From Candidatus Iainarchaeum sp. (lineage in GTDB: Archaea; Iainarchaeota; Iainarchaeia; Iainarchaeales; CSSED10-239), in the NCBI GenBank assembly GCA_028700115.1, contig JAQVTI010000009.1, forward strand, positions 4,841 through 36,840: a stretch of 32,000 nt of DNA, written 5' to 3'. The translations under genes were made by a program, and so were the position numbers. The notes below the pieces were generated by a model, which did not search any database, was not told the origin of the DNA, and saw nothing but the letters and a program-made list of their open reading frames with translations. Below, in pieces: positions 1-28,080 of the stretch. Within the stretch, counting starts at the first letter, position 1, and each line of letters begins with the position of its first letter.

Positions 1-44
1 GGATCTTTGAAGCATGGGTTGAATCCAGTGATTTGTAGATTTAA

Positions 45-296
45 ATGAAAAAAATTATTTTTAATAATAGAGAATATTGGTATAGGCAAGAAAAAGAAGA
101 TGTTTATATCTTATTTGAAAAAACTAACTATTTTTATCTTGTAAATATGATTATTATTGATGTAATAGAGTATTTAGCTAATAATAAAAGTTTATTAGAG
201 ATTACAGAAATTATTAATAAAAAATATCATATTAATATAACTGTAGATTTTTTAGTCACAAAATTAAAAAATATTGAGGGTATTATTAATGAGTAA
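45..296 (+). CDS. PqqD-like (RRE-type) small peptide-binding protein, putative
   Basis: 83-aa ORF. Strand-like segment EKEDVYILFEKTNYFYLVN followed by helical IIDVIEYLANNKSLLEITEIINKKY resembles PqqD/RRE chaperones. Its stop overlaps the ATG (289) of the next radical SAM/SPASM gene. Confidence 0.5.
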   Translation: MKKIIFNNREYWYRQEKEDVYILFEKTNYFYLVNMIIIDVIEYLANNKSLLEITEIINKKYHINITVDFLVTKLKNIEGIINE

Positions 297-2907: not shown

Positions 2908-2919
2908 ATAAGTGATTTT

Positions 2920-3234
2920 ATGAAATATGGTATTGAGTATATAGTTAAAAAAGATTTCTTAGGTACTATTAAAATTATAAAGAATAGATCTGATTTTAAT
3001 AAAGTTAATGAAAATGATATTATTTTATTATTAAACACAAGTCCTGATGTTATTTTGTTATTTAATAAAATTAAAGGTGTTATTATTGAAATAGGAGGCC
3101 AAACATCACATTTAACAATTATTGCAAGAGAGAGTAATATGCCTCTAATTAGATTAAATAACGCTAAAGAAATAATTACAGATGGCGATTTTGTAAAAGT
3201 AGTTGAGGGTAATATTTATGTTAATGAAAATTGA
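2920..3234 (+). CDS. stand-alone PEP-utilizing-enzyme mobile (phosphohistidine swivel) domain protein
   Basis: 104 aa. DIILLLNTSPDVILLFNKIKGVIIEIGGQTSHLTIIARESNMPLI matches the GGxTSHaAIvARexgiP signature around the catalytic His of PEP synthase/PPDK/Enzyme I swivel domains. Confidence 0.8.
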   Translation: MKYGIEYIVKKDFLGTIKIIKNRSDFNKVNENDIILLLNTSPDVILLFNKIKGVIIEIGGQTSHLTIIARESNMPLIRLNNAKEIITDGDFVKVVEGNIYVNEN

Positions 3235-4225
3235 GGTTCTTTGTAAAAAGATAGCTAAAGATATATCTATAATACAAAAAGGAGGGGCAATTGAAACTCA
3301 GTGGCCTTTTTTAACTTCAGAAGTAGAAAACTATATTGGTGTTGATTTTATCAAACATTTAAGTAATATATTAGATGAAGCTTTATTAAACAATAATATA
3401 ACACAAATTGCTACTAAATTGAAATACCCTTCAATGATAACTCAATATATTGCTTTGATTCATAGTGCAAATGTATTACCTCTTAATAAAAGAATTGAAT
3501 TAATAACTAATTTAATAAGTATAATAGAAGAATTAAGAATGGACTATTTATGTAATAAAGGTATTAATATATTGCAAAATTTTGATATTAGTAAATTTTT
3601 ATCTAATGATATTAAACAAGATATTATTCCTCAAAAGATATCTAGTATTTTATATGCTTATACTGAAAAATTATATCCTACTTTAATGCGTTTGTCATTT
3701 GAACATCATGGTCCATATATTTTTAATAAAAAAAAATATGTTGTAAAAGAATATTTTAATCTTAAAAATCAATATTCAAATATGTTTCCTGTTTTTAACT
3801 ATGATAATGTTAAAATAATTCAAGAAATAGAAGGAGATTTTAATGTTGATTTTTTTGGGCATTCAATAGGAGATTATAAAATAGTTAATTCGATTTTAGT
3901 TGTAGATAATGAAATAATTAGTGACACAAATAAATTTTTAGAAGAAATATTAATTAATTTTATTAATTTAGATAAGTTATTTTTAGAATATACTGTTGAA
4001 GATTATGCTAAAAATTTAACAAATGGATTGTTTTATTCTTTAAAACCATTAACTACTTTAATTAATAAAGATTGGGTTCCATCTAAAAATATAATTGCTA
4101 AATTAAATGGGTTTAAATTATTTTTTCCTAGAGATAAAATTATTAATTATATAAAGTCTACAGATATAAATGAAATAGAATTTAAAGTGTACTTAAGTTT
4201 TAAAAATATTTTTATTAAAGATTAA
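3218..4225 (+). CDS. hypothetical protein, family X (paralog of 18112..18993)
   Basis: ATG 3218 (or 3224) overlaps the upstream stop. Shares N-terminal CKKIAKD...WPF and central FFGH motifs with the locus-B ORF. No known family recognised by eye. Confidence 0.6.
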   Translation: MLMKIEVLCKKIAKDISIIQKGGAIETQWPFLTSEVENYIGVDFIKHLSNILDEALLNNNITQIATKLKYPSMITQYIALIHSANVLPLNKRIELITNLISIIEELRMDYLCNKGINILQNFDISKFLSNDIKQDIIPQKISSILYAYTEKLYPTLMRLSFEHHGPYIFNKKKYVVKEYFNLKNQYSNMFPVFNYDNVKIIQEIEGDFNVDFFGHSIGDYKIVNSILVVDNEIISDTNKFLEEILINFINLDKLFLEYTVEDYAKNLTNGLFYSLKPLTTLINKDWVPSKNIIAKLNGFKLFFPRDKIINYIKSTDINEIEFKVYLSFKNIFIKD

Positions 4226-4227
4226 TT

Positions 4228-5076
4228 ATGAAATATGAAATTCATTTTAATTATAAATGTAATCAAAATTGTATTTTTTGTAGTGTATTACAACATCCTC
4301 AAAGAGATCTAGAATTAAGTGATTTAGATCTAATTTTACCTTTTATTCATAATAATCAAATTGTTCAAATTAGTGGAGGAGAGCCTTTATTAAATACAAA
4401 TTTGATTAAATGGGTAAAAGAAATTAAAAAAAAAACTAGATTTATTTCTTTAACTACTAATGGCACTTTATTAAATAAAGATAATTTAAATGAATTAATT
4501 AATTTAGGTGTAAATTGTTTTATTATTTCATTACATAGTAATACTATTAATAATTTTAAGAAAATAACTACAACTGATAACTTTAATAATGTAATAAATT
4601 GTTTAGAATTATTTAAAAAAATAAATAATAGTAGCATAAAAGTAATAGTTAATACCGTTATTACAAAATATAATATTTCTGAAATTTTCGATTTATTTAA
4701 AATGTTACATGAAAAATATGGTTTTGCTAAAATAAAATTATCTTATCCTAGATTTTATAAATTTGCAAAATCTGATTTTAATTGTAAAATTCATTTATTG
4801 TCATTAACAGATGTTCATTTCTTTTTAAAAGATATAATTAATAAACCTTATTTTGATAAACTTATTATAGAAAATATTCCTTCATGTATAATTAAACCTA
4901 GTAAAGAATATAGAGACTGGTCTACTAAACTTTTAACAGTAGATGGAATAAAAGATAGTGTAGATAACACGAGATATTATATGAAAAAATGTGTTACTTG
5001 TAATTTAAGATTAAATTGTCAAGGATTTCACAAATATTATAATTATTATTTTGACGATTATATTTTGGAAACATAA
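4228..5076 (+). CDS. radical SAM enzyme with short C-terminal Cys cluster (twitch/partial-SPASM-like)
   Basis: CNQNCIFC, SGGEPLL and TTNGTLL motifs. C-terminal CVTCNLRLNC. Starts 3 nt after the upstream stop. Confidence 0.8.
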   Translation: MKYEIHFNYKCNQNCIFCSVLQHPQRDLELSDLDLILPFIHNNQIVQISGGEPLLNTNLIKWVKEIKKKTRFISLTTNGTLLNKDNLNELINLGVNCFIISLHSNTINNFKKITTTDNFNNVINCLELFKKINNSSIKVIVNTVITKYNISEIFDLFKMLHEKYGFAKIKLSYPRFYKFAKSDFNCKIHLLSLTDVHFFLKDIINKPYFDKLIIENIPSCIIKPSKEYRDWSTKLLTVDGIKDSVDNTRYYMKKCVTCNLRLNCQGFHKYYNYYFDDYILET

Positions 5077-5128
5077 TTGTTTAGATAGATTTATTAATTT
5101 GTAATTATATATATTTATAGTGTTGTAT

Positions 5129-5848
5129 ATGTTTAAAGGAAATATTTCAACTAATTTAAAATTTACAAATAAATTAGATAGATTAAAAAAAGAAACTATA
5201 GCTTCTAAAAAAATTACTTTTGCAAGTTATCCAAAAAAAGAAGTTGCAATTAAGTATGTTGATGCTTTTTGGAAAAGATATTTTGATGGAAGCTTAGAAA
5301 AATCTTTATCTAAAAGAAAAGATAACCATTTTATTTCTAATTATAATCCAAATGTAAAAATTTTTCCTATTTCTCCTACAGTTTCTGTAACTGTAAGAAA
5401 AATGAATTTAATAGATGTAAGACCTTATTTCGAAATTCATAAATATTATAAAGAAAAATTTAAAAATGCAAATTTTAAATATTCTAAATTTGTTTTAACA
5501 GATATAATAGATTATAAGAAAAAAGGGGATTTTTATTATGTTCTTGAAAGAATAGTTCCTTCTATTAGTGTATATGATTTTTATGTGTCAGATTTTAAGG
5601 GTTTTAAAGAAAATAGATTTTCTAAATCTTTTCAGAAAAGTTTAGAAAAAGTGGATTTATTAAAGATGAAAGAAGATTTAGGTCCAGCATTAAATGAATT
5701 AAAACATTTTATTAATAATAATTCTAAATTTAAATTTAGACTTGATAATTCTAATAATAATATTATTATAATTGATTATAATCCAGAAACACATAAATTT
5801 AAATTTGGATTAATTGATTTTGCTGGTATGAGTTCTAAAAGTTTTTAA
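5129..5848 (+). CDS. protein-kinase-like fold protein, putative (RIO/Kdo-kinase-like)
   Basis: VAIK lysine motif, LDNSNNNIIII catalytic-loop-like segment and IDFAG (DFG-like) motif. ATG 5129 preferred over GTG 5120. Confidence 0.45.
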   Translation: MFKGNISTNLKFTNKLDRLKKETIASKKITFASYPKKEVAIKYVDAFWKRYFDGSLEKSLSKRKDNHFISNYNPNVKIFPISPTVSVTVRKMNLIDVRPYFEIHKYYKEKFKNANFKYSKFVLTDIIDYKKKGDFYYVLERIVPSISVYDFYVSDFKGFKENRFSKSFQKSLEKVDLLKMKEDLGPALNELKHFINNNSKFKFRLDNSNNNIIIIDYNPETHKFKFGLIDFAGMSSKSF

Positions 5849-5952
5849 AAATAATACTATTTTTTAAGTTTTTTTTTCTTATTTTGCAAACATCTATTTA
5901 TAAATTTATTGTTACTTGTATATTTATACAACTAATAATTAGGTGAATATTT

Positions 5953-7107
5953 ATGAATTACAAAAATTTTAATCCTTTACTTTTTTTAATGTCTTTAGGT
6001 GCTGGGGGTATTTCAATTATTCCTTTTGCGTTTTTACAATATACTTTTTTTAGTTCAAAAGGACTTGTTACTTTATCTGATGTATTAAGTTCAAGTTTAA
6101 GTATGTCTCAATTAGTTTTATTTAATTTTTTATTTATAGTTATGATTGTTTTTGGATTACTTCATTTAATTTTAAGTGTTATATTAATAAAACATTTAAT
6201 TAAATGGATAAAAGAAGGAAGATATAAAGAAATGTTAAATAATCCTTTAAAAAACTCTGCTCTTTTAGCTCCATTTATTTCTATTATAATGACTTTAAAT
6301 GTATTTATTGGTCCTATTAGATTTTTTATAAACCCTATTTCAAATAATCTTCAAAGTTTAATGATTTATGCATTAATCTTTTGGGGTTTAATATGGTTAT
6401 TTTTAATGTATTTAGATTTAAAGTTAATATCTATATCTTTTTTAAAAGATTTTGATGTTTCTAAAATAAATTTCGGATGGCTTTTACATTCTTTTGCATT
6501 AGGTATGGCTTCTGTAACTGGTTCTGGAATTGCAGCTTTATCTCAAAATATTTTAATTGCACACATTGCTGCATTCTTATCAACAATTTCTTTAAGTTTA
6601 GGTTTATTTTTATTAATAGTAAAACTAATAACTTTATTTAAATTCCATTTTGAATCAAAAGGATTACCTGATAAGCAATTTTTACCTAGTTTTTTAATAG
6701 TTATTCCAAATGTAACTTTATTTGCAATAACTTTATTTAGATTAGGTCATTATTTAGAACATGCTTTTTCATTTTCATTAGGAGCTTATTTTTTAGTAGT
6801 TATTCTTTTAAGCTTTGTATTTGAAATCTGGTATTTTGGTTTTTCTTTATTTTTACTTAAAGATTATTTTAAAAAACACTTTTTTAAAAAAGAATTCTAT
6901 ATATCTCAATGGGGGCTTGTTTGTCCAGTTGTAGCTTTTGCTGTTTTGGGTAGTTTTTTATATAAAGTATTTGTTCCTAATATAATATTATATATTGTAA
7001 TAATAGTAGTTTTAATTATTTCAGTTGTTTTGTTTTTTATACTTTTTATAAGACAATTAAAATGTAGTAATTTTTTAAAAAGTAAAAGTTTTATATGTAA
7101 GAATTAG
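5953..7107 (+). CDS. polytopic integral membrane protein (about 10 hydrophobic segments), putative transporter
   Basis: 384-aa ORF made of repeated 20-25-aa hydrophobic stretches. AGGTGA lies 7 nt before the ATG. Family not recognised with confidence. Confidence 0.7.
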   Translation: MNYKNFNPLLFLMSLGAGGISIIPFAFLQYTFFSSKGLVTLSDVLSSSLSMSQLVLFNFLFIVMIVFGLLHLILSVILIKHLIKWIKEGRYKEMLNNPLKNSALLAPFISIIMTLNVFIGPIRFFINPISNNLQSLMIYALIFWGLIWLFLMYLDLKLISISFLKDFDVSKINFGWLLHSFALGMASVTGSGIAALSQNILIAHIAAFLSTISLSLGLFLLIVKLITLFKFHFESKGLPDKQFLPSFLIVIPNVTLFAITLFRLGHYLEHAFSFSLGAYFLVVILLSFVFEIWYFGFSLFLLKDYFKKHFFKKEFYISQWGLVCPVVAFAVLGSFLYKVFVPNIILYIVIIVVLIISVVLFFILFIRQLKCSNFLKSKSFICKN

Positions 7108-7176
7108 AAATCATAGAAGATTTAAGAAATTATATAATAAAAGAAAATAGTTGAAAAAATATAAAAAGAAAATAAA

Positions 7177-8529
7177 TTATTTTCTTATATATTTTTTATT
7201 TCTTGTTTTTTGTTTATTTTTAAATCTATCTTGATGTTGTCTTTTTCTGAATTTCTTTTCTTTGTCCTTAAAGTATTCTTTATCATCATCACTTTCTTTT
7301 TTTCTAGCAGATGCGATTTGGTCTTTAACTTCAGAAATTCTTTTATCAAATTGATTTCTTCTTCTTGAACCTTTTGTATCTCTTGCCTTAATGTTTTTAG
7401 ATGGTTTTTTAAGTTCAAGATATTTAAATTCAGGAAGAGGCATTAAGTTTACATCAAATTTATTTTTACTACAAATCTTTAAGAAATCTTGTTTATCTTT
7501 AGTTGTAATAAAACTAATTGCTTTTCCTGTTTTTCCTGCTCTTGCAGTTCTACCTATTCTATGTACAAATTGTGTTTTTTCTCTAGGTAGATTAAAATTA
7601 AAAATAAAATCTAAATTATCAATATGTAATCCTCTAGCAGAAACATCAGTTGATACTAAACAAGAATGTTTATCTTGTGTATATTTTTCAATAATATGTG
7701 TTCTTTTTCTTTGTTCTAGTCCACCGTGAAGCTTATATGCATTTATTCCGTTTTCTTTAAGATTATATTCTACACTATCAACTAAAGTTCTTGTATTACA
7801 AAAAACAATTGATTTTTTAAATAAATTTTGTTTAAGTAAATGTACTAATAAAGATATTTTTTTATTTTCTGGAATTTTATAATATTCCTGAACAAGCATG
7901 CTTTTATCAACATGTACTTTTGCAGAAACTCTTTTTGCATTTTTCATAAACTTATTTTCTATATTTTTAACATCTTTTGTAATTGTTGCAGAAAATAAAA
8001 GCATTTGTTTTTCTTTAGGCATATATCCTAATATTTTTTTAATATCAATAATAAAACCCATATCACTCATTCTATCTGCTTCATCTAGAACAATATGTTT
8101 TACTTTTTTAAGATTTAAATTTCCTCTTTCAATATGATCTAATAATCTACCTGGAGTTGCAATTACAATATGTGCTTTTTTAATTTCTACAGTTTGGAAT
8201 CTAATAGGTTCTCCACCATAAACTACACTTGATTTGATATGTGTGTTTTTTGTGAATTTTTTAGTTTCTTTATCAATTTGAATAGCAAGTTCTCTAGTTG
8301 GAGTAATAACTATTGCTTGTGCACCTTTTGTAACATCTAACTTTCCTAGAATTCCAGCTAAAAATGCAAATGTTTTTCCAGTTCCAGTTGCAGATTGTGC
8401 AATTATGTCTTCTCCTTTAATTACTAAAGGTATTGTTTTTTCTTGTATTTCTGTAGGTGTTTTATAACCTAATTTTTCTACAGTCTTAATTACATGTTCA
8501 TCAAGACCTAATTTTTTAAATTCGTTCAT
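7177..8529 (-). CDS. DEAD-box ATP-dependent RNA helicase
   Basis: Motifs AQSATGTGKT (I), PTRELA (Ia), DEAD (II), SAT (III) and HRIGRTARAG (VI). Lys/Arg-rich C-terminal tail. Confidence 0.95.
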   Translation of the reverse strand: MNEFKKLGLDEHVIKTVEKLGYKTPTEIQEKTIPLVIKGEDIIAQSATGTGKTFAFLAGILGKLDVTKGAQAIVITPTRELAIQIDKETKKFTKNTHIKSSVVYGGEPIRFQTVEIKKAHIVIATPGRLLDHIERGNLNLKKVKHIVLDEADRMSDMGFIIDIKKILGYMPKEKQMLLFSATITKDVKNIENKFMKNAKRVSAKVHVDKSMLVQEYYKIPENKKISLLVHLLKQNLFKKSIVFCNTRTLVDSVEYNLKENGINAYKLHGGLEQRKRTHIIEKYTQDKHSCLVSTDVSARGLHIDNLDFIFNFNLPREKTQFVHRIGRTARAGKTGKAISFITTKDKQDFLKICSKNKFDVNLMPLPEFKYLELKKPSKNIKARDTKGSRRRNQFDKRISEVKDQIASARKKESDDDKEYFKDKEKKFRKRQHQDRFKNKQKTRNKKYIRK

Positions 8530-9485: not shown

Positions 9486-10907
9486 TTATTTCTTCTTTGT
9501 GAAAAATTCAATAGCAACTTCTAGTTCTTTATGTGTTTTTGCATATTCTTCAATTGAAATTCCTTTTTTATATGCCTCACATGCCTGAACTAAAGCCATT
9601 GCTCCTTCTTTTGTACCATTTGGATGAGCATGACAACCTGCACCCATAGTTGTAATAAAGTCAACTCCACCCATAACATCAATAAATGGTTTTAATAAAG
9701 TAGGGTTAAGTCCTCCTGAAACAATAGGTGTACATTTTTTTACACCTCTCCATTCATCTTCATCTAAGATAGCTTTGTGTGCATGATCTTTTTCTACATT
9801 TTCAATAAAATCTAAATCTTTTTCAGATATTTTACCCCAAGATTGATCAAAGAAAAATCCTTTTCCATATAAATCTAATATGTTTTTAGCAGCAGTGATG
9901 TCTGATTTAGGAGTTCCATCCATTTTTCCAACTCCAGCAGTTCCTGTATGTATCCCAGAAGCTCCTGCAAGTCTTGCAAATTTAGATAAAACTAAAACTG
10001 AAAATCCAAAATCATTTTCTGGTCTTGTAAAAGCACCGTGAGCTGCTCTATGGAAATGTATAAAAACATCAGGATATCTTCTTCTTAGAGTTTGAACAGC
10101 CATCCATCCTGCAGTAATCCCATCTATTAAAAATGCATATGAACCTTTTTCAAATCCTGCATTTTCAATCATTTCACATCTTTTAATCATTGTGTCAAAA
10201 TCTGCAGCTGAAACATTAAAAGAGTGTACTTTTTTCTTTCCAGTCTCTTTTACTGCCTTTTCCATTGCGTTTTTTACATGTTTTACCATTTTATCGTATG
10301 GACAGAAGTCTTGGTCTGCTTGAGGCTCATCGTTTTTAACAAAGTCTCCTCCACCAACCCAGAAGTCATAACAAACTTCTGCATATTCTGCTGAAGTTAG
10401 TCCCATTTTTGGCTTTACAATTGTTCCTAGAATAGGTCTATTATAAACATCTAAGTATTTTCTCATATCATCAATTGTGTATGATGGTCCATCAAATTGT
10501 TCTAGCATAGAAGGAGGAAACCATAAGTCTAAAAGTTTAAGAGCAGAAACTTCTTTCATACCTAAAACATTTCCTACAATGTAAGTTAGTATATTTTGTA
10601 CATTTCCAACTCTATCAAAAAGTCTCCATGGATATGCAATCCATACAAGTTCTTTTTCTTGATCTAAGTCATAAACTAAAGCATTCATTTCTCTTGAGAA
10701 TGCAGTTTCTGTTTGTACTTTAAAATTAGTCCCAGTTGAAGACTCAGCTGCAATTTCTGCTGCTGCTTGTAAGACATTTAGTCCTTTACCTTCTTTCATT
10801 CTAAAAACACAAAGAAGATATTCTCCATTTTTTGTGTTTGGTATATTAAAATTAACATAGGCTTTTTGTTTTTCATTTAAAGTTTCATATAATTCATTTT
10901 TATTCAT
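9486..10907 (-). CDS. rbcL: RuBisCO large subunit, form II/III-like
   Basis: GGGDFVKNDEPQ (carbamyl-Lys motif in the KNDE variant of form II and II/III enzymes), HFHRAAHG, GIHTGT and VSGGLNP. No small-subunit gene nearby. Confidence 0.9.
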   Translation of the reverse strand: MNKNELYETLNEKQKAYVNFNIPNTKNGEYLLCVFRMKEGKGLNVLQAAAEIAAESSTGTNFKVQTETAFSREMNALVYDLDQEKELVWIAYPWRLFDRVGNVQNILTYIVGNVLGMKEVSALKLLDLWFPPSMLEQFDGPSYTIDDMRKYLDVYNRPILGTIVKPKMGLTSAEYAEVCYDFWVGGGDFVKNDEPQADQDFCPYDKMVKHVKNAMEKAVKETGKKKVHSFNVSAADFDTMIKRCEMIENAGFEKGSYAFLIDGITAGWMAVQTLRRRYPDVFIHFHRAAHGAFTRPENDFGFSVLVLSKFARLAGASGIHTGTAGVGKMDGTPKSDITAAKNILDLYGKGFFFDQSWGKISEKDLDFIENVEKDHAHKAILDEDEWRGVKKCTPIVSGGLNPTLLKPFIDVMGGVDFITTMGAGCHAHPNGTKEGAMALVQACEAYKKGISIEEYAKTHKELEVAIEFFTKKK

Positions 10908-16415: not shown

Positions 16416-17345
16416 TTATTGTTGTTTATTATAAACTTTAACTATTTTTTTATAAAATTTACACATTTCCATAAATTGATTAGGATTTGTCTTTTCTAAA
16501 AATTTGCACCCTCCTTTACAGTAATTCCATATTTCGCAATTTTTATTTAAACATATATTAATATTATTTATTTTTTTTAGATTATATTTTTTATACATTG
16601 TTAATAAATGACATCTATCATAACTACCATCTGGAAATATTCCATAAGTTGTATTTTCATAATAACCACAAAATTTATTTTTATTTAATTTATTATCTAA
16701 ATAATTAAAAAAATAATTTGAAAATGGGGATATTTTTATATTTTTTTTATGAAGTGAAAGTATGTATTCTATATCTTTAATAGTTATTCTTTTTATAGAA
16801 TTTATATTGGAAAAATTAAATCCTATGTAATTTGGATTTAATTTTAATAAATTAATTATATTCTTTTTAAAATTAATTTTTGTAGATATTGTGGATGATA
16901 TTTGTAATTGTATCCCTCCTTTTTTAATTAATTTAGCATTTGTTATAAGTTTTTTTATATTGGTTGATCTATTTTTTAAATTAGTTTCAATAGGGTCAAT
17001 ACTTATAGTTATATTTTTAATACCCCAATTTTTAAGTTTTTTAATTGTATTTTTGTTAATTAAAGTTCCATTTGTAATTATATTAAAATTGTAAATACCT
17101 AGTAATTTTAATCTTATTATAATTTTTTTAATGTTTTTTAAGTCTAATAAAGGTTCTCCACCATAAAAAATAATTGTAGAATCCGATCTATATTTTTTTG
17201 GAACTAATAAGTTAATAGAATTTATAATATTATTTATGTCAAATGCATTTTTTTTATTTAATAAATTAATTTTTTTTAAATAACAATATTTACAATTTAA
17301 GTTACAATTATATGTAGTTATTATAAATAATTTATATTTTTTCAT
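16416..17345 (-). CDS. radical SAM enzyme with SPASM-like C-terminus
   Basis: CNLNCKYC, YGGEPLL and ITNGTLI motifs. C-terminal CLNKNCEIWNYCKGGC. 4-nt overlap with the upstream gene. Confidence 0.8.
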   Translation of the reverse strand: MKKYKLFIITTYNCNLNCKYCYLKKINLLNKKNAFDINNIINSINLLVPKKYRSDSTIIFYGGEPLLDLKNIKKIIIRLKLLGIYNFNIITNGTLINKNTIKKLKNWGIKNITISIDPIETNLKNRSTNIKKLITNAKLIKKGGIQLQISSTISTKINFKKNIINLLKLNPNYIGFNFSNINSIKRITIKDIEYILSLHKKNIKISPFSNYFFNYLDNKLNKNKFCGYYENTTYGIFPDGSYDRCHLLTMYKKYNLKKINNINICLNKNCEIWNYCKGGCKFLEKTNPNQFMEMCKFYKKIVKVYNKQQ

Positions 17346-17779
17346 AATTCTTCTAAAATATTAATGGTTTTTTCTAAATTATAATTTATAAATAAATTAT
17401 CTCTTTTATTTTTATAATTTTTTATTAATTTATTTATATTATCGTTAATTAATATTGGATCACAATTTAGAAATAATAATTTTTTACAGTTATTATAAAA
17501 ATATGTGGTTAACAATAAATTATCTAGTATGTTATAATTTATTTTAACAAAAGTATTTACCGATAAAGGATAAATTAAAATTAAATTTGGTTTTGGAATT
17601 GAATTAATATTACTCCATTCTATTTTTCTATTTTTTAAAAATTTGAATTTATTTAAATTAAATAAATTATATGAATTATTTGAAATACAATAATATACTT
17701 TATTTTTTTTAAGGATATTGTTAATTTTATCTAAATTCAATATATTTTGACCAGCACAAACTAAAACATATATAATCAT
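17342..17779 (-). CDS. divergent flavoprotein-family (HFCD/EpiD/Dfp-N-like) homolog, putative
   Basis: LILIYPLSVNTFVKINYNILDNLLLT aligns by eye with the (P)ASANT..KiAnGiaDnLLt core of the Flavoprotein family. The N-terminal IIYVLVCAGQN strand-loop is degenerate. Confidence 0.4.
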   Translation of the reverse strand: MIIYVLVCAGQNILNLDKINNILKKNKVYYCISNNSYNLFNLNKFKFLKNRKIEWSNINSIPKPNLILIYPLSVNTFVKINYNILDNLLLTTYFYNNCKKLLFLNCDPILINDNINKLIKNYKNKRDNLFINYNLEKTINILEEL

Positions 17780-18108
17780 AAATTATCAATTGTAATGGTT
17801 TTTTTATTAAAATCAATTATTAATTTTTTATTATTTTTAAACAAATTTATATTATCTACTTTTATTAAAAATATTTTTTTTTCTCTAGCAAATATACTCA
17901 TGTGACTTAAATAACTTCCATTTTCAATAATTCCCCCTAATGAATAAAGTAAATATGGAGAATCCATAGGGGTTAGGGATTTAGAAATTAGAATTTTATC
18001 TTTAATTTTATTTAAATTTGTATTATTTTTTAAAATCAAAGATTTTCCAGAAATTATTTTTGTCATATTAGATTTACTTAATATTTCAAATTTAATTTTA
18101 TTTATCAT
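17776..18108 (-). CDS. stand-alone PEP-utilizing-enzyme mobile (swivel) domain protein, divergent
   Basis: ILISKSLTPMDSPYLLYSLGGIIENGSYLSHMSIFAREKKIFLI keeps the spacing and the SH...AR core of the swivel-domain His motif. Confidence 0.7.
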   Translation of the reverse strand: MINKIKFEILSKSNMTKIISGKSLILKNNTNLNKIKDKILISKSLTPMDSPYLLYSLGGIIENGSYLSHMSIFAREKKIFLIKVDNINLFKNNKKLIIDFNKKTITIDNL

Positions 18109-18111
18109 TTA

Positions 18112-18993
18112 TTATTCCTCTAAAAGATATTTTATGAAGTTATGTGTATTTTTAATTACTTTTGTTTTATTTTCAATAAATATACTTGCATCTTTATCAG
18201 TATCTACATTTAAATATTTGTTTACATCTAAAATATATTTATTTTTTAAATTAATATGAGTTGTGAATTGGTTATAAACATAATTAACTTTATCTTTATT
18301 TAATTTTAATTTTATATTTTTTTTAAGATTTATTAAATGTAGTGATAATTCATTTATTAATTTATTTGGATTTATGGTTTTATTATTTTTCATAATTAAA
18401 AAATCATTTATTTCTTCTACTTTAAATATATGTCCAAAAAAGCTAATATCTGGTTTTTTTATATAATTACTTATTAAAATATATTTTTGATTATTAATAT
18501 TATATTCTCTATATAATTTCCCATTAAATGTGTATATGTTAAATCCAACTCCTCTAAAAATTGGAAAATAAATTTCATTTAAATTATCTAATAAAAATAC
18601 TGTAGAATAATATAATTCTCTATTTTTAATAAATCTACCTAATTTTAAGTCTTTATTTGGATTTAATTTTAAATCCATTGTTTTTTCTAATGTTATGTCT
18701 TCATATTTATCAATTAAATAAGTTATTATTTTTTTAAAATATTTTTTTTGTGTAATTTTATTTGTTTTTTTATTTATTAACATTAGTAAATATGATCTTA
18801 ATTCAAAAAAAGAAATATTTGATATATTATTATCAATATAATCTTTAAGATATGGTGTGAAATTTTCTGCGAATATATTAGAAATTATGGTTGATGATAA
18901 TGGCCAATTATGAATTGTAGAACCAGATATACATAGATAAAACATATCTTTACTTATTTTATTACAAATTTTATTTATTAATTTCTTTTCCAT
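18112..18993 (-). CDS. hypothetical protein, family X (paralog of 3218..4225)
   Basis: ATG 18993 (MEKKLINKICNKISKD...) preferred, 1 nt after the upstream stop. Shares C(N/K)KI(S/A)KD...WP(L/F) and FFGH motifs with the locus-A ORF. Confidence 0.6.
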   Translation of the reverse strand: MEKKLINKICNKISKDMFYLCISGSTIHNWPLSSTIISNIFAENFTPYLKDYIDNNISNISFFELRSYLLMLINKKTNKITQKKYFKKIITYLIDKYEDITLEKTMDLKLNPNKDLKLGRFIKNRELYYSTVFLLDNLNEIYFPIFRGVGFNIYTFNGKLYREYNINNQKYILISNYIKKPDISFFGHIFKVEEINDFLIMKNNKTINPNKLINELSLHLINLKKNIKLKLNKDKVNYVYNQFTTHINLKNKYILDVNKYLNVDTDKDASIFIENKTKVIKNTHNFIKYLLEE

Positions 18994-18994
18994 G

Positions 18995-19561
18995 TTATTC
19001 TGCCTTATATTTAAGTAATATATATTTATTTTCTTTAAAATAAATTTCAACACCAATATTTATTAAATCTATTGCCCTTATAGGTAATAAATTTTCACAT
19101 AAAATTTTATTTTTGTAATTATTAGATAAATTTTGCCAATAATTATTTATAAATTTATTATATTCTAAATTACTTAATTTTTTCTTAATTTTATTTAGGA
19201 TTTCAGTTTCTTTTTTTTTATTAATTGAAATTATATGATAAAAAATACCTTTGTCTTTTAATAATGATTTACATTTTTTAATAAATTTTATGCCATTATT
19301 TTTGAAATATATATCATTAAATAAATTTACTGAATATATTATATCATATTTTGTTTTATTAAAATTATATTTTAAAAAATCTGATTTTATATAATGTATT
19401 TTTTTTGTTTTTAAATTATTTATTTGAATTAAATCTAATAAAGTTATTTTATGGCCTTTATTTAATAATTTTAAATAGTTTTTATTGTTATTAACCCCTA
19501 TTTCTAATATATTTAAATTTAAAGTACTTGAAATATCATTATATATAATATCATATAACAT
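18995..19561 (-). CDS. class I SAM-dependent methyltransferase, putative
   Basis: Degenerate motif I ILEIGVNNN, an acidic residue after beta-2 (TLLD), YDIIYSVNLF and LLKDKGIFY are in the order expected for Rossmann methyltransferases. Confidence 0.5.
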   Translation of the reverse strand: MLYDIIYNDISSTLNLNILEIGVNNNKNYLKLLNKGHKITLLDLIQINNLKTKKIHYIKSDFLKYNFNKTKYDIIYSVNLFNDIYFKNNGIKFIKKCKSLLKDKGIFYHIISINKKKETEILNKIKKKLSNLEYNKFINNYWQNLSNNYKNKILCENLLPIRAIDLINIGVEIYFKENKYILLKYKAE

Positions 19562-20696
19562 ATTTATCTTTTATTTTTATGATTTTGTTAAATAATTTAT
19601 TGGTTACCGTACATAAAGGATCTGATCCTAAAAGTTCTTGTGCATAGATACAACCTCCATATCTTGCACACAAAGAATTATTTTTCAAATAACAATTTTT
19701 ACAATCGTTTATTTTATAAGAATTATATAATTTGTTTTTTATATTATATATTTCTTTTAAATCATTAATAAACTTTATATTTCCTAATTTATGTTTTTCT
19801 AAACCTACAAATCTATTACATAAGTAAATGTCTCCATTATTATTAATACCTAACATATTATCTTTAGTAATACAACTAGTAGTAAATCTACAATTAGGTA
19901 AAGGCATATTAAAAAAAATAGCATCAATATAACTATCAAAATCTTTTATAGTAATTTTTTTATTTTCTAAATAATAGTTAAAACAATCGTATAAGAATTG
20001 CACATATTTATTAACTAAATTATTATCTACAATATTTTTTCCTCTTCCTACTGGATACATTAAATTTATTTGTAAATCTACATTTAAATTATTATAAAAA
20101 TCTATGTAATTTATAGGTTTTATTTTGTTTACAGTAAAATTATTTAATGTAGATAATACATTAAATTTATTCTTATTTTTTTTAAGTATATTAATACCTC
20201 TTATAACTTGATTAAAAGAACTAAAATCATTTTTATTAACTCTATATTTGTCATTAATAAATTTTGGTCCATCTAAACTTACCCCTATAGCAAAATTATT
20301 TTTTTTAAAAAATTTAGAATAATCTTCATCTATTAAAGTTCCATTTGTTTGAATTTTATTTACAAAATGAATATTTTTTGGGAATATATCTTTTTGTAAA
20401 TCAATTATATTTTTATAAAAATCTAACCCAGCTAAAAGTGGTTCTCCTCCATGCCAGGCATATTCTAAAGTTAGAAATCGCGGATTATATTTTTTGACTT
20501 TATTTATATCTTTTTTAGAATATATTGAATTTATATAATCTAAATTTTTATAAAATTCATTAATAGTTAAATTAAATATTTTTTTAATTACATCTATAGA
20601 TATTAAATCATATTTTTGATTGTATGAACCGTATGTATAACAATATTTACAATTTAAATTGCATGCATTTCCAACAGGTCTTATTGAATATCCCAT
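19551..20696 (-). CDS. radical SAM/SPASM enzyme (anSME / peptide-maturase-like)
   Basis: CNLNCKYCY at residues 12-20, WHGGEPLL, IQTNGTLI and VSLDGP motifs. C-terminal Cys-rich CKNCYLKNNSLCARYGGC plus upstream Cys. Confidence 0.85.
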   Translation of the reverse strand: MGYSIRPVGNACNLNCKYCYTYGSYNQKYDLISIDVIKKIFNLTINEFYKNLDYINSIYSKKDINKVKKYNPRFLTLEYAWHGGEPLLAGLDFYKNIIDLQKDIFPKNIHFVNKIQTNGTLIDEDYSKFFKKNNFAIGVSLDGPKFINDKYRVNKNDFSSFNQVIRGINILKKNKNKFNVLSTLNNFTVNKIKPINYIDFYNNLNVDLQINLMYPVGRGKNIVDNNLVNKYVQFLYDCFNYYLENKKITIKDFDSYIDAIFFNMPLPNCRFTTSCITKDNMLGINNNGDIYLCNRFVGLEKHKLGNIKFINDLKEIYNIKNKLYNSYKINDCKNCYLKNNSLCARYGGCIYAQELLGSDPLCTVTNKLFNKIIKIKDKYVI

Positions 20697-20704
20697 ATTA
20701 TTTT

Positions 20705-20851
20705 TTAATATCCATCTACATATTCATCAGCACCGTGTGCTGTTTTTCTAACTAAATCAAAATAGATATTGTCTTTATCTAATTTATTTTTTTTAAGTAA
20801 TTCATAATTTTTAAACCTACATTTTATTGCATTTGATTCAATTTTAGCCAT
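20705..20851 (-). CDS. 48-aa leading small ORF, candidate precursor peptide (absent from ORF track)
   Basis: Hand translation: MAKIESNAIKCRFKNYELLKKNKLDKDNIYFDLVRKTAHGADEYVDGY. AGGAGG lies 9 nt upstream of the ATG. The stop is 8 nt before the radical SAM/SPASM ATG. It is the first gene of the locus-B operon. Confidence 0.45.
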   Translation of the reverse strand: MAKIESNAIKCRFKNYELLKKNKLDKDNIYFDLVRKTAHGADEYVDGY

Positions 20852-20934
20852 AAATTGATTCCTCCTAAATGTTTTTATTAGTATACATAAGGTTTTTATA
20901 TGTTTCTTTTAAATTTTATTACTTTTTCAATTAA

Positions 20935-21612
20935 TTTTTTAGTTTCTGGATCATTATAAAAATCAGAAACACAAAGGCAGATATTATTAATTTAGTTAGA
21001 GTAGAAACACCTGAAATACCAGAACCTGCTTTAAGGGAATCAATATTAAATGCAATGATTCATAGAAATTATTTTATTCAAGGAAGAATATTAATAGAAA
21101 TTTATGAAAATAGAGTGGAAATATTAAATCCTGGAAAACTATTATTTGATCCAAAAGAATTTGGTAAAGTAAGTGTTTCAAGAAATCCTATATTAGCAGA
21201 TTGTATATTAAGAACTAGTTTGATAGAAAAGATAGGTTCTGGTGTTAAAAGAATTAGAAAATTAGTTCCAAATGTTAAGTTTAATATAGATACAGATTGG
21301 TTTAGTGTTATATTTAAAAGAGATATATCTACTAAAGTGGATAGTAAAGTAAGTGTGGATGCCGGTATAAATGCACCTGTAAATGCACCTGTAAATGCAC
21401 CTGTAAATGCACCTGTAAAATTAAATAATTTACAATTAAACATTATAACAGAAATACGAAAAAATAAAAATATAACTTATGATGATTTAAGTAATATATT
21501 TTCTATACATAGAACTACAATTATGAGAAATATTTCTAAATTAAAGAAATCAGGAATATTAGAAAGAATTGGATCTGATAAAACAGGATTTTGGAAAGTA
21601 AATAAAATTTAA
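20935..21612 (+). pseudogene. 5'-truncated remnant of a RecG-like (HATPase_c_4 + C-terminal wHTH) putative transcriptional regulator
   Basis: The frame is open from 20935 with no start until M at 21055. ALRESILNAMIHRNY...NPG...SRNPILADCILRTSLIEKIGSGVKRI matches the C-terminal half of this family. The N-terminal AlbA_2-type half is missing. Confidence 0.6.
21369..21416 (+). repeat. perfect 12-bp x4 tandem repeat (aaatgcacctgt) encoding (NAPV)4
   Basis: Read directly. Lies in the linker before the C-terminal wHTH of the truncated regulator. Confidence 0.95.
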
Positions 21613-23715: not shown

Positions 23716-26700
23716 ATGAATAATAAGAATATAAATAATAGTCATTTTCCAAAAATACTATTATCTTTAAGTTTAATCTTTTTCTTTTTATTATCATTTG
23801 GGAATGTATTTGCTGCACCAACAATTACTGTAGATACATTAACTACAAATGATCAAACTCCTGAATTAACAGGAGATATTAGTTTAGATGGAGAATCAAT
23901 TACAAGTATGCAATTAATTTTAGATGGTGTTACTTATGGAGATTCTTCTATTACTAGAACTACAACTACTTGGACATTAGCAGATAATGTGATTACATCT
24001 AATTTATCTGAAGCTACTTATGATGTTGCTGTGCAAATGAACACAAGTGTAACTGGATCTGTAACTGATTCTACATCTGATGAATTAGTAATTGATACAA
24101 CTGCACCTACAGTTTCTATTACATTAAGTGATTATGCTTTAATTGTAGGTGAAACATCAACTGTAACTTTTACATTTAGTGAAGCTCCAATTGGATTTAC
24201 ATCTGATGATGTTATCTTAACAGATGCAAATGGAACTATTGGAGAAATTACAAATGAGGGTTTAGTTTATTCAGGTACTTTTACTCCTACAGATGATTTA
24301 GAAGATGCTGAAAATGTAATTACTGTTGGAACTTCTTGGACTGATGCAGCTGGAAATTCACCAATCGGAACTACAGATTCTTCAAATTATGAAATTGATA
24401 CACAAAAGAACCTACATTATCTATTACATTAAGTGATTATGCTTTAATTGTAGGTGAAACATCAGTTGTAACTTTTACATTTAGTGAAGCTCCAACTGAT
24501 TTTACTGTAGATGATGTAACAATAATTGATAATGGAATTTTATCTGATTTTGCTGTTAATGGTGTAGATTCTAAAATCTATACTGCTACTTTTACTCCTG
24601 CAGATGATTTAGAAGATGCAACAAATATTATTACTGTTGGAACTTCTTGGACTGATGCAGCTGGAAATTCACCAATCGGAACTACAGATTCTTCAAATTA
24701 TAAAATTGATACAAAAGAACCTGTTATTTCTGAAGTTACAGCTGTAGTTACTCCTACAAATGATTCTACTCCTGAATACACTTTTACTACAAGTGAAGTA
24801 GGAAATATGTCATTTACTGGAGGGTGTTCAACTTCAGATACAATTAGTGCTACTGGAGATGCAACAATTACATTTGCTGCATTATCTGATGGAACATATG
24901 ATTGTAACTTAATTGTAACTGATGCAGCTGGAAATGCATCTAATATTTTAAATATAAGTGAATTTACTATTGATGCTACAAGTCCAACATATGAAATTTT
25001 ATATTCAAATAATGGACCTGTAAAATCTGGAGATTCTGTAACTATTACAGCTGAGTTTAATGAAGATGTTAAAGACTCATCTGTTCCACAAATTGAATTA
25101 TCTGGAGATGCTACTGGATTTGATGCTATTAATATGACTAAAACAGATTCAAATACTTATACTTATGTTTGGACTGTTGGAACAGGAGATGGAAATTTAA
25201 TTCCTACTGTCACAGTTGCTGAAGATTTAGTAGGAAATGTTATAACTGAAACAGGATCTACAAAAACTCAAATTGAAGTAGATAATACTTTGCCAACTTT
25301 AAGTTCTGTTACAATTGAATCTAATAATTCAAATACAGCTTATGCAAAAGTTGGAGATGTAGTAACTTTAAGTTTTACTGCAAGTGAAAATTTACAAACA
25401 CCTACTGTTACAATTGCAGGTTATTCTGTGGGTGCAATTTTATCTGAAGGCAGTTATATTGCAGAATATACTTTAGTTTCTGGAGATGCTGAAGGAATTA
25501 TTTCTTTTACAATAGATTTTACAGATACTGCTGGAAATGAAGGTAGTCAAGTAACAACTACTACTAATGAATCTAGTGTTACTTTTGATAAAACTATACC
25601 AATTATCTCAAGTGTTGTTTTAGGTTCTGATGAATATATTAATTCTGATGAAACTACTAGTGGTATAAATATTTTAGTAAATACAACAGGTGTTGAAGAT
25701 TCTCAAACTGTGACTTGTGAATTAACAGATGGAACTACAACTATTTCAAAAATTGGAAGTGTTTCTAGTAATACTGTTACAATTGCAAGTGGTGTTTTAA
25801 CATCATTAAATGATGGAACAATTACAGTAACTTGTGATGTTTCTGATATTTCTGGAAATGCTGCAACTTCTGAAAGTAATACAGCTACAAAAGATACAGT
25901 TGCACCAACTTTAGTTTCTGCAGAAAAAGTTTCTGAAACAGGAATTGAATTAACTTTATCTGAAACAATTACAGATAATGATTCAAATCCAACTGATTTT
26001 ACAGTAACTGATTCACAAGATAATACATTTACTGTAACTAGTCAATCAAATACAGATGGAACAACTATTTTGTTAACAGTTAATTCAATGCATACATCTA
26101 TTGGAGATTTAACTGTAACTTATACAAATAATAATTCAGAAGTAGAAGATTTAGCAGGAAATGATTTAGCAACTGATTCAACTGGAGTTGTTGCTTCAAG
26201 TGTAAATTATTTATCATTTGTTGAAGGTTGGAATTATTTTGCACTTCCAAAAGATACTGAAGATAATACAATTTCTGCTATGTTTAATACAAATCTAGAA
26301 AATATAGAAGTTATTTACAAATATGATTCTGTAAATGAACAATATGTTGCAATGGATAATTCAGACGAATTAGAACTTTTAGAGGGATATATTATAAAAA
26401 CAACATCTGCATTTGATGAAGAAGTTGTTTATGAATTAGATTCTGCATTATATTCTGGAGAATATAGAACTTTAGTTCCTGGAACTTGGAATTTAGTTGG
26501 AAATACTTCTTTAGAAAATAGATCTAGAATGTCATATATTTTGAATTCTTGTGAAAGTACTGTTTCTGAAGATAATCTTTGGGATATGACTGTTCATTAT
26601 AATGAAGCTGGCCAATATGGATTTATACAAAATATACTTTCTTCTTATAATGTAGATTTAATGGATTCATTCTGGGTATATGTTCCAACTTTACCAGATT

Positions 26701-26747
26701 ATCAATCTTGTACAATGCTTTTAAATAGATTAGAGGTTGAAGAATAA
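23716..26747 (+). pseudogene. large secreted surface protein with Ig-like repeats, interrupted by a frameshift at about 24400-24404
   Basis: Signal peptide MNNKN...LSFGNVFA-AP. Repeated TAPTVSITLSDYALIVGETS.VTFTFSEAP...DAAGN modules. The frame of ORF 24807..26747 is open back to 24408 and continues the repeat (EPTLSITLSDYALIVGETSVV...). Confidence 0.7.
24115..24722 (+). repeat. two tandem copies of a roughly 303-bp (101-aa) coding repeat
   Basis: tctattacattaagtgattatgctttaattgtaggtgaaacatca occurs at 24115 and 24420. The last ~75 nt of the two copies differ at a single position. Confidence 0.85.
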
Positions 26748-26817
26748 ATCTGTATAAGAAAAGATTTAATCTTTTCTTTTTTTCCTTTTTTTTATAAAAA
26801 AAGGGAGGTTATAAAAA

Positions 26818-28080
26818 ATGATGAAAAAAATATTTAAAATATTTATATTATTTGTAATTTTTTCAATAGGTGTTATATATGCAACTCCTAATTTACCATC
26901 TACTCCACATGCATTTTATGGAAATGTGACAAATGATGGAACTGCTTTAGAAACAGGTTGTGTTATTTGTACTGAAGTAAATGGAATAACAAATCTAAAT
27001 GATTGTATAACAACAGATCAATTAGGAAAATATGGTTATAATAGAAAATTAATTGCACAAAATGTAAATTTAGAAGATGGAAATATAGTTAAATTTAAAA
27101 TAGGTTCAACTTATGCAACTCAAACAGATGAATTTGAATCAGGAGAAATTACTTTTTTAGATTTAAGTTTTACTGGAGCAGATTGTTCAGAAGAACCTGA
27201 AGGAACTGATCCTAGTTCAGGAACTACTGGAGGTTCTGATAATACCTCTGGAACAACAGGTTCAAGTGGATCTACTGGATCAACTACAGGAACTACAGAT
27301 GATCAAAATACACAAAGCCCATCATATACTGGACAAGATAAACAAGGTATTTTAGATACAATTGATTTAGAAAAAGATTTTCCACAAACACAAAATAAAG
27401 ACGATTTACAAATAAATCTAATTGAAGAAAATTCATATTCAACAAATACAAATAGTTCAAACTTTGATTCTATTTTAGAAAAGATAGAAGATTCAAAAAA
27501 ACAAGAATTTAATGAACTAAAAAATAGATTAAATTCAAATAATAATCTAAGAAGTACAATAAATATAAAAGAATATGAAATAGTAAATCCAGATACAGGA
27601 GAAAAAAGTTATTCTACAAAAATAGAATTAAAACTTCAAGCTTTAGATAATTTAGAAGAAATTGAATATGTTTTAGTTATACCTAAAGAAATAGCACAAG
27701 ATGTATTGGAAATTATCTTTAATATAGAACCTTCTGAAGTTTTAAATGCAGACCCTGTTGTAAAATGGAATGTTGATAGTTTACAAAAAGGAGAAATCTT
27801 AGATTTATCTTATTTTGTAAAAAAAGAAATATTAATTCAAGATTTAGATTTTATTTCAATTAGTGGAGCAAAAGACGTAGATTTAGAAAATACAAATATT
27901 AATACAAATACTACTGGAGATAGTAATAATAATAATAATTCTCCTATAGATACAACTACTCCTTCAAATGCACCTTTTAAATCTAGATTGCCATATCTTA
28001 TAGGTATTTTAGTTGTTGCTATTATTATTGGAATAATTGTTGATATTTCTAAAAAAAAGAAAAAACATAAAGGGCTTTAA
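26818..28080 (+). CDS. surface protein with N-terminal signal/anchor, Ser/Thr/Gly-rich linker and C-terminal TM anchor
   Basis: MMKKIFKIFILFVIFSIGVIYA, then TPHAFYGNVTNDG (reminiscent of archaeal PGF-pre-PGF-type domains), SSGTTGGSDNTSGTTGSSGSTGSTTGTT, and C-terminal LPYLIGILVVAIIIGIIV followed by KKKKKHK. GGGAGG precedes the start. Confidence 0.75.
   Translation: MMKKIFKIFILFVIFSIGVIYATPNLPSTPHAFYGNVTNDGTALETGCVICTEVNGITNLNDCITTDQLGKYGYNRKLIAQNVNLEDGNIVKFKIGSTYATQTDEFESGEITFLDLSFTGADCSEEPEGTDPSSGTTGGSDNTSGTTGSSGSTGSTTGTTDDQNTQSPSYTGQDKQGILDTIDLEKDFPQTQNKDDLQINLIEENSYSTNTNSSNFDSILEKIEDSKKQEFNELKNRLNSNNNLRSTINIKEYEIVNPDTGEKSYSTKIELKLQALDNLEEIEYVLVIPKEIAQDVLEIIFNIEPSEVLNADPVVKWNVDSLQKGEILDLSYFVKKEILIQDLDFISISGAKDVDLENTNINTNTTGDSNNNNNSPIDTTTPSNAPFKSRLPYLIGILVVAIIIGIIVDISKKKKKHKGL

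Follow-up and report, generated by a model that had tools for sequence, protein, structure and literature searches.

The window analysed here is a 32,000-nucleotide stretch of contig JAQVTI010000009.1 from Candidatus Iainarchaeum sp., and it contains a minus-strand operon of seven co-oriented genes (16416..20851, called cluster B below) with overlaps or gaps of 11 nucleotides (nt) or less between neighbours. The operon is predicted to be translationally coupled. Its first gene is a short open reading frame (ORF) whose product of 48 amino acids (aa) is MAKIESNAIKCRFKNYELLKKNKLDKDNIYFDLVRKTAHGADEYVDGY (stop codon included in the span given in Table 1), and the gene that follows encodes a radical S-adenosylmethionine (rSAM) enzyme with a SPASM domain. 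Comparison of related loci indicated that the 48-aa ORF likely encodes the substrate peptide of this adjacent enzyme. The explanation as a whole, namely that this is a real gene at the head of an operon, that its product is the rSAM/SPASM substrate, and that a proposed cross-link and phospho-relay act on it, is given a probability of roughly 70%.

The peptide ORF is adjacent to the rSAM/SPASM gene and has the same orientation; its TAA stop (20705..20707) leaves a gap of 8 nt before the start of that gene (ATG at 20696). A preliminary description, made from the sequence of this DNA, had pointed to this spacing, to a strong AGGAGG upstream of the ORF, and to a TATA-like catataaaaa further up, and all three were located. 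The ORF and its coordinates also stood, but the description of it as unannotated did not, as GenBank has entries for the peptide (MDD3178047.1 and MDD3976127.1), assigned to Candidatus Iainarchaeum sp., a DPANN archaeon, and labelled hypothetical protein without functional annotation. GGAGG is rare, with 20 occurrences in 64 kb (both strands), and sites resembling a Shine-Dalgarno sequence precede 8 of the 33 genes against a background of 4.3%. The catataaaaa string was read straight from the sequence, and A/T-rich strings are common in a window of 22% GC. Spurious ORFs of 47-67 aa occur in other frames elsewhere in this AT-rich window, so a 48-codon ORF by itself is not beyond chance; the signals that are beyond chance are the ribosome-binding site and a C-terminal motif that recurs across loci.

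The window peptide matched no model in Pfam, NCBIfam, or PADLOC, and when it was used as query against 5.8 billion proteins in a word-indexed search, only the peptide itself was recovered. NCBIfam scans of four related peptides and of the peptide of a second cluster in the window (cluster A, described below) were also without a match. Relatives of the peptide were found through gene context only. Five distinct peptides from five metagenomic lineages were identified, all encoded directly upstream of orthologous rSAM/SPASM genes: the window peptide, with the same C-terminus in a near-identical strain fragment (locus L005), and those of L001/L006 (JGI 3300013138, ending in ...NAHAEDEYADKY), L007 (GCA_003557145.1, ...WEGNDYVDKY), L002-L004 (JGI 3300032069, ...VDHSDVYGDKY), and L020 (ENA ERZ27247220, ...CWGQDYSDRY). 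The gene order peptide, rSAM/SPASM enzyme, a protein of about 300 aa, and a phospho-histidine 'swivel' protein was found in L001/L006, L002-L004, L007, and L020, and in L022 and the P0139 contig the ~300-aa protein and the swivel come after the C-terminal end of an rSAM gene. This order is shared by the closest rSAM relatives and by every close relative of the ~300-aa protein, and wherever the sequence could be read, a short ORF lay immediately upstream of the rSAM gene. The peptide-rSAM family is rare. Contig scans of one genome per species with the ~300-aa partner as marker found no relative, and the metagenome scan returned the known loci plus only one fragment, L011. Scans of viral contigs for more loci found nothing.

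The five versions of the peptide are 48, 48, 48, 59, and 54 aa long and share 24-46% identity overall. All five terminate in Y-x-D-x-Y directly before the stop codon (family motif Y-x-D-x-Y-COOH). In the alignment Tyr16, Tyr44, Asp46, and Tyr48 are invariant, and a leader motif, A/V-I/V-K/R/Q-x-R, is shared. Among 4274 stop-terminated six-frame segments from 121 kb of non-redundant related loci, Y-x-D-x-Y followed by a stop occurred five times, always at the peptide position, where 0.26 occurrences were expected. Conservation of the ORF and its C-terminus in homologous loci had been set beforehand as a test, and both were found to be kept in the five lineages. The variable body and invariant tail also bear out the earlier reading of the peptide as a leader plus a core formed by the acidic, Tyr-containing C-terminus. 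A Glu five residues before the end had also been highlighted; it is not conserved, as the position is E, E, D, V, and D in the five peptides. The penultimate residue is G, K, or R, giving Gly-Tyr, Lys-Tyr, and Arg-Tyr ends. Cys11, the sole Cys of the window peptide, is not conserved, and the five cores have no conserved Cys.

The strain variant L005 differs from the window by one synonymous change in the 147 nt of the peptide ORF, by 16 changes in 738 nt of the rSAM gene (ten of them non-synonymous), and by 11 changes in the 112 nt of spacer 5' of the peptide ORF. A single synonymous change in the ORF against about 10% divergence in the spacer indicates that the peptide ORF is under purifying selection. 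Shine-Dalgarno sequences of the GGAGG or GAGG type were present at three of the four other peptide ORFs (GGAGG in L006 and GAGGTG in L007, for example). In L002, there is instead a TATA box about 30 nt upstream of the peptide ORF, as is seen for archaeal mRNAs without leaders, which suggests that the L002 peptide transcript is leaderless.

The 381-aa rSAM/SPASM enzyme opens directly with its CX3CX2C motif, and therefore has no N-terminal recognition element (RRE) of the kind associated with peptides that are made by ribosomes and modified after translation (RiPPs). C12, C16, C19, and eight C-terminal SPASM Cys residues are invariant in the five orthologous enzymes, so two auxiliary clusters are expected; pairwise identity among the five is 31-51%. 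The best NCBIfam models for the window enzyme were the anaerobic sulfatase-maturating enzyme (anSME, 188 bits) and DynA (163 bits), both under cut-off, and the same two models were on top for all five enzymes: DynA with 163-220 bits (cut-off 450) and the anSME model TIGR03942 with 170-217 bits (cut-off 349). Next were the cyclophane synthases YhhB, GrrM/OscB, AmcB, FxsB, and XyeB, with 66-156 bits against cut-offs of 310-450 for these curated families, and other peptide maturases, namely PapB, TIGR04083, and DarE/DarW (80-133 bits for the five enzymes; the DarE or DarW cut-off is 650). MftC and PqqE had been named earlier as precedents for the enzyme, a comparison that DynA and anSME displace: MftC (TIGR03962) and PqqE were absent among the 25 best models listed for the window enzyme and among hits at E <= 1e-20 for the four orthologous enzymes. 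The system falls outside every curated family tested (DynA, DarE/W, the 3-CyFE families, anSME, PapB, MftC, and PqqE).

The closest solved structure to the 381-aa enzyme is anSMEcpe (4K37, E 3.5e-33), and CteB and the triceptide synthase ChlB (9GM3) are also among its solved relatives. The context of the third SPASM Cys is C-N-R in all five enzymes versus C-D-F in anSMEcpe, an Asp to Asn change at what is presumably the proposed general base of anSME. The sulfatase motif Cys/Ser-x-Pro-x-Arg is absent from the peptide, and no sulfatase was found among the cluster and flanking proteins scanned with Pfam. Identities as an anSME, a sactisynthase, or a ranthipeptide synthase were rejected because the peptide has neither the sulfatase motif nor a conserved core Cys. 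For the two rSAM proteins, PADLOC reported only a generic viperin-core similarity, which does not connect them to any defence system.

The swivel protein and the ~300-aa protein were present in every rSAM locus whose contig runs past the rSAM gene. The best match of the 110-aa swivel is the C-terminal swivel of PRK06241-type 'PEP synthase' models (PEP, phosphoenolpyruvate), PigC is also among its NCBIfam hits, and its phospho-carrier His69 is invariant in 11 homologues. The ~300-aa family, which always adjoins a swivel protein, had 43 cluster representatives among 1.84 billion proteins and five proteins in the word-indexed search. There was no Pfam hit among 30 members of the family, in which W-P, Glu140, Pro144, Arg147, and F-F-G-H (FFGH) are conserved. 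An AlphaFold (AF2) model based on a 30-sequence alignment had a pLDDT of 93.7 and a pTM of 0.91, and a Foldseek search of the PDB with this model gave no match (best E 0.077, TM 0.14). A relationship of the family to an 83-aa RRE-like protein encoded in cluster A was considered and rejected (hhalign probability 1.4%). The true start of the window protein is probably Met22 of a 314-aa TTG-initiated ORF. These properties suggest that the swivel and the ~300-aa protein, together with a PPDK_N protein where one is present, make up a split swivel-type phosphotransferase with a layout like that of rifampin phosphotransferase or PigC. From co-location only, it was inferred that this phosphotransferase was recruited in these operons to phosphorylate or activate the modified peptide. 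No swivel, phosphohistidine, dikinase-type, or PEP-utilizing component of a RiPP pathway was described in the literature searched (full text).

Table 1. Features of the peptide operon (cluster B) and of the paralogous cluster A in the window
Feature	Position	Strand	Basis and remarks
Probable precursor (substrate) peptide gene, 48 aa	20705..20851	minus	ORF reading; residues 1-~38 read as leader, with conserved A-I-K/R-x-R...Y16
Invariant C-terminal core Y44-V-D46-G-Y48	20708..20722	minus	Alignment of five peptides; proposed modification site
Shine-Dalgarno sequence AGGAGG	20861..20866	minus	9 nt ahead of ATG at 20851
TATA-like, A/T-rich catataaaaa	20893..20902	minus	~45 nt 5' of start codon; candidate archaeal promoter
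rSAM/SPASM enzyme, 381 aa, probable peptide maturase	19551..20696	minus	Pfam Radical_SAM and SPASM; no N-terminal RRE domain
SAM-dependent methyltransferase, 188 aa	18995..19561	minus	Pfam Methyltransf_11, E 3.7e-5; 11-nt overlap with rSAM gene
~293-aa protein 'unk300' (~300-aa family)	18112..18993	minus	No Pfam or NCBIfam hit
Stand-alone phospho-histidine swivel protein, 110 aa	17776..18108	minus	Pfam PEP-utilizers, E 4.7e-8
Flavoprotein-like protein, 145 aa	17342..17779	minus	Pfam Flavoprotein, 24.0 bits (cut-off 22.7); weak HFCD/CoaC-type
Second radical SAM protein, 309 aa, Cys-rich C-terminus	16416..17345	minus	Pfam Radical_SAM, E 2.6e-19
Paralogous cluster A	45..5076	plus	Second rSAM peptide-type cluster, at left edge of window

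The remaining genes of the operon are less widely shared. A methyltransferase gene between the rSAM gene and the ~300-aa gene was found in the window locus only, and not in L006, L007, L002, or L020. Methyltransferase-like genes are placed differently in L006 (230 aa, divergent, and upstream) and in L022 (430 aa, with a weak Methyltransf_23 match, after the swivel). The genes for the Flavoprotein-like protein and the second rSAM protein are common to the window and L007 only. The L007 orthologue of the Flavoprotein-like protein is 40% identical, and the best PDB relative of the window protein is the phosphopantothenoylcysteine decarboxylase PPCDC (1QZU), at only E 0.37; because both this and the 24-bit Pfam match are marginal, decarboxylation of the HFCD type was not built on. 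The best NCBIfam models for the second rSAM protein were the geopeptide, PapB, and AF0577-type models, all under cut-off. It is 51% identical to the products of two overlapping L007 ORFs (3387..4323), one of 259 aa and one of 71 aa with the Cys-rich C-terminus, into which a frameshift divides the orthologue there; this reflects either a pseudogene or an assembly error. No PqqD/RRE, peptidase, flavin mononucleotide oxidase, or glycosyltransferase was found in the operon with Pfam, and scanning the window for Rfam families and tRNAs gave no hits. The locus in L006 has further genes of its own: a 1075-aa protein without a Pfam match (4078..7305) ends 15 nt ahead of the peptide gene, and after the swivel gene there are two more unknown proteins, of 258 and 272 aa. 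These three proteins may be lineage-specific parts of the system. GC content in the cluster B region of the window (17000..20000) is 15-16%, compared with 25-30% in housekeeping genes such as RuBisCO, which points to an accessory or recently acquired region.

In the proposed mechanism, the leader would dock the peptide on the RRE-less rSAM enzyme, and the 5'-deoxyadenosyl radical would then take a hydrogen from Cβ of the invariant Asp46. PapB and QhpD, which belong to the same enzyme clade, attack β- or γ-carbons of Asp and Glu. The Asp46 Cβ radical would couple to Tyr44 or Tyr48, either at the ring or at the phenol oxygen, with a mass change of -2 Da per link. This coupling is proposed because the invariant Tyr-x-Asp, found in the core of all five peptides, fits the aromatic-X-X motif of cyclophanes of the triceptide/dynobactin type. 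In triceptides, the aromatic residue of such a motif is joined to Cβ of the third residue, and the native motif of ChlB is Tyr-Asp-Arg (PMC11499958). By this analogy, a first reaction that is specifically a Tyr-Asp cross-link is plausible at somewhat under even odds. The swivel and ~300-aa proteins would next phosphorylate the modified tail at a hydroxyl or carboxylate, and in the window lineage the methyltransferase, the Flavoprotein-like protein, and the second rSAM protein would tailor the product further. A more far-reaching version, in which a DynA/anSME-like rSAM enzyme cross-links or remodels the invariant Y-x-D-x-Y tail, a His phospho-relay then phosphorylates or activates the product, and the outcome is an archaeal class of peptide product, possibly small and cofactor-like, is speculative and on balance doubtful. 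It would bring with it phospho-relay chemistry of a kind not seen before in RiPP pathways, and a previously unseen fold in the ~300-aa protein. The precursor family and the unprecedented accessory module are what is new here, and the logic of a peptide plus an rSAM enzyme is familiar.

Several observations weigh against this explanation. The support for it is comparative, and the lineages that carry the peptide are just five, all metagenomic. As all of the enzymes score far under the curated cut-offs, the chemistry rests on analogy. Triceptide motifs need not be C-terminal, so that the constant final position of Tyr is not accounted for by a cross-link alone, and the strictly terminal Tyr48 therefore leaves room for decarboxylation of the MftC type or for activation of the carboxylate. 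The ~300-aa/swivel pair also occurs without an rSAM gene or peptide nearby: amid housekeeping genes in L016, beside a separate PPDK_N ATP-grasp gene in L008 and L009, and in L017-L019, whose contigs are only ~3 kb long and of which L017 and L019 each have two tandem pairs. The pair may therefore act on something other than the peptide. A tblastn search of the 32-kb window with the L008 PPDK_N as query found no ATP- or PEP-binding donor domain (PPDK_N), and in the other rSAM loci the only one was in a full-length PEP synthase of L002, at a distance of 7 kb. Neither a leader peptidase nor an exporter was found in the operon.

The position of Tyr as the very last residue in all five peptides, as in MftA, could also be accounted for by a pathway like those for mycofactocin or pyrroloquinoline quinone (PQQ), in which the C-terminal Tyr is oxidatively decarboxylated (-46 Da) or an acidic residue is joined to Tyr, and the modified tail is then excised and tailored to give a small redox cofactor. 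Tailoring enzymes are present in the operon (the methyltransferase, the Flavoprotein-like protein, and the second rSAM protein) and an exporter or immunity gene is not, and for hosts with small genomes a cofactor would be a likelier product than an antibiotic. However, MftC, which decarboxylates the C-terminal Tyr of MftA, needs the RRE protein MftB to do so (PMC8728441), and cluster B is without an RRE. Neither MftC nor PqqE appeared among the best models listed for the window enzyme or the stronger hits of its orthologues, the penultimate residue is G, K, or R rather than Val, the Glu is not conserved, and no homologues of MftD/E/F or PqqB/C were found in the operon with Pfam, all of which makes such a pathway unlikely. 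A less probable alternative again is that the peptide is a scaffold or carrier similar to LysW/pearlin, in which case the phospho-His module would activate the C-terminal or Asp carboxylate as an acyl phosphate and the rSAM enzyme would have a tailoring role. An invariant, strictly terminal, and acidic C-terminus would suit this role, as would the association of the rSAM loci with an invariant-His swivel and its partner, but the pair exists without the peptide too, the peptide always abuts the rSAM gene rather than the swivel module, and the ~300-aa protein has no Pfam or PDB match to suggest an activity.

Conservation and synteny alone do not separate a substrate from a partner, and no cleavage motif, protease, or exporter was found, all of which would be compatible with a small protein that is not a substrate, such as a regulator, chaperone, or accessory subunit of the rSAM enzyme. 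This is very improbable, as a variable body with an invariant five-residue tail is typical of leader-plus-core peptides and not of folded partners, and both the length of 48-59 aa and the position directly ahead of a SPASM maturase fit known RiPP precursors. An origin of the ORF as a remnant of an RRE gene was also considered, and the PqqD-like 83-aa gene in the paralogous cluster A (a weak WgkC-type hit, E 0.051), like the random ORFs of ~50 aa in the AT-rich window, would be in keeping with a remnant or a spurious ORF. The remnant was rejected, as a BLASTP comparison with the 83-aa RRE-like protein gave no alignment and the window peptide had no similarity to PqqD models in Pfam or NCBIfam. 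With the ORF intact in five lineages, a Shine-Dalgarno sequence in the window and most of the relatives, a single synonymous change beside a much more divergent spacer, and a terminal motif far beyond chance, a spurious or remnant origin is effectively refuted. The reading of the ORF as the gene for an rSAM/SPASM substrate peptide is preferred.

The second cluster of the window, cluster A, encodes the 83-aa weakly PqqD/WgkC-like protein, an MftC/AhbD-like rSAM/SPASM enzyme, a 542-aa enzyme dependent on thiamine pyrophosphate, a swivel protein, a 340-aa member of the ~300-aa family (3203..4225, plus strand; 24% identical to the cluster B copy), and a MoaA/HxsC-like rSAM protein. An enzyme dependent on thiamine pyrophosphate is unusual in a peptide-modification cluster. 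Directly upstream of the cluster A genes in L013-L015 is a 43-aa ORF, MDKINQQVSQQINIDKLFVIKKLPITSKEKNGIFEAWVESSDL (GenBank MDD3178652.1 and MDD3976101.1), which lies 6 nt ahead of the 83-aa RRE-like gene and is complete in L014 (360..491). Positions 1..38 of the window (plus strand) are the 3' end of this ORF, which makes it another candidate precursor, truncated by the edge of the window; the preliminary description had instead read positions 1-140 as a remnant. The E-A-W-V-E tail of the 43-aa ORF resembles the D-E-Y-V-D of the cluster B peptide, in that both have the pattern acidic, any residue, aromatic, Val, acidic.

The divergent neighbour of the operon at 21055..21612 (plus strand) has an HATPase_c_4 domain and a helix-turn-helix, and its start lies inside the domain, while a full 486-aa version with SLFN_AlbA_2 and HATPase_c_4 is present in L008. 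The window copy looks 5'-truncated, possibly as a rearrangement scar beside the operon. Both the window (9486..10907, minus strand) and L007 (4817..6277) have a form-III-like RuBisCO large-subunit gene only a few kb from the peptide operon, probably because related genomes share synteny and not because the genes are functionally linked. Three large Thr/Ser/Asp-rich proteins (238, 646, and 420 aa) with signal-peptide-like N-termini or a C-terminal membrane anchor are encoded at 23716..28080 (plus strand). Two ORFs in alternative frames there (24326..24436 and 24616..24747) have near-identical strings in common, a sign of a DNA repeat between the first two of these genes.

No description of this peptide family, or of an association of a swivel, an rSAM enzyme, and a peptide, was found in the literature searched, nor was an rSAM-modified peptide from DPANN archaea; a survey of archaeal RiPPs mentions only generic rSAM classes for DPANN. 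If the explanation is correct, Y-x-D-x-Y-COOH peptides would be a new precursor family with a directly testable pair of enzyme and substrate, and the 48-aa peptide and 381-aa enzyme are small enough for immediate heterologous testing. rSAM peptide chemistry would be tied both to a phospho-histidine relay and to a family that folds with confidence but has no structural relative, and the orphan ~300-aa family, with its 43 cluster representatives, would gain its first functional context. The presence of two paralogous clusters in a very small genome suggests that what they make is of importance to the organism, which might use it as a cofactor or to mediate between host and symbiont.

Compared with known systems, this one would appear to work like an RRE-independent rSAM/SPASM RiPP pathway, and enzyme similarity and motif geometry place it nearest to the dynobactin and triceptide pathways. 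Like DynA/DarE and the triceptide synthases (YhhB, GrrM/OscB, AmcB, FxsB, XyeB, and ChlB), it has an RRE-less rSAM/SPASM enzyme beside a short precursor, and the invariant Tyr-x-Asp fits the triceptide pattern of an aromatic residue linked to the Cβ two residues on, as in Tyr-Asp-Arg of ChlB (PMC11499958). It is unlike them in that the scores of its enzymes are far under the family cut-offs (310-650 bits), its hosts are archaeal (DPANN), its single motif is fixed at the very C-terminus and ends in an invariant Tyr, and a phospho-His swivel protein always accompanies it together with a partner whose fold is unmatched. anSME (PDB 4K36-4K39) is the closest solved structure, is one of the top two NCBIfam models, and has the same SPASM Cys pattern for two auxiliary clusters, but the scores are below its cut-off (349 bits), the peptide has no sulfatase motif, and CDF is replaced by CNR in the enzymes of this family. 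Sactipeptides and ranthipeptides differ in that the cores found here have no conserved Cys donors. With PQQ biosynthesis there is little in common, as the Glu-x-x-x-Tyr of PqqA is not kept (Glu43 varies), PqqE is not among the 25 best models listed, and PqqB/C/D were not found in the operon. The mycofactocin system (MftA/MftB/MftC) is similar in that tailoring enzymes and an rSAM/SPASM enzyme are encoded beside a short peptide with a final Tyr, and the product here could likewise be an intracellular small molecule, but the enzyme is of a different clade, and the window operon is without an RRE partner, a Val-Tyr tail, and MftD/E/F; an MftC/AhbD-like rSAM enzyme and an RRE-like protein are found in the neighbouring cluster A and not in cluster B. 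The likeness to PEP synthase/PPDK, rifampin phosphotransferase, and PigC is in the 110-aa PEP-utilizers mobile domain with its phospho-carrier His, and the swivel, ~300-aa protein, and PPDK_N of L008 correspond to the same three-part layout split into separate genes. In the window, by contrast, the domains are separate small proteins, the fold of the partner is unmatched, and the 32 kb contain no ATP-grasp or PEP-binding domain.

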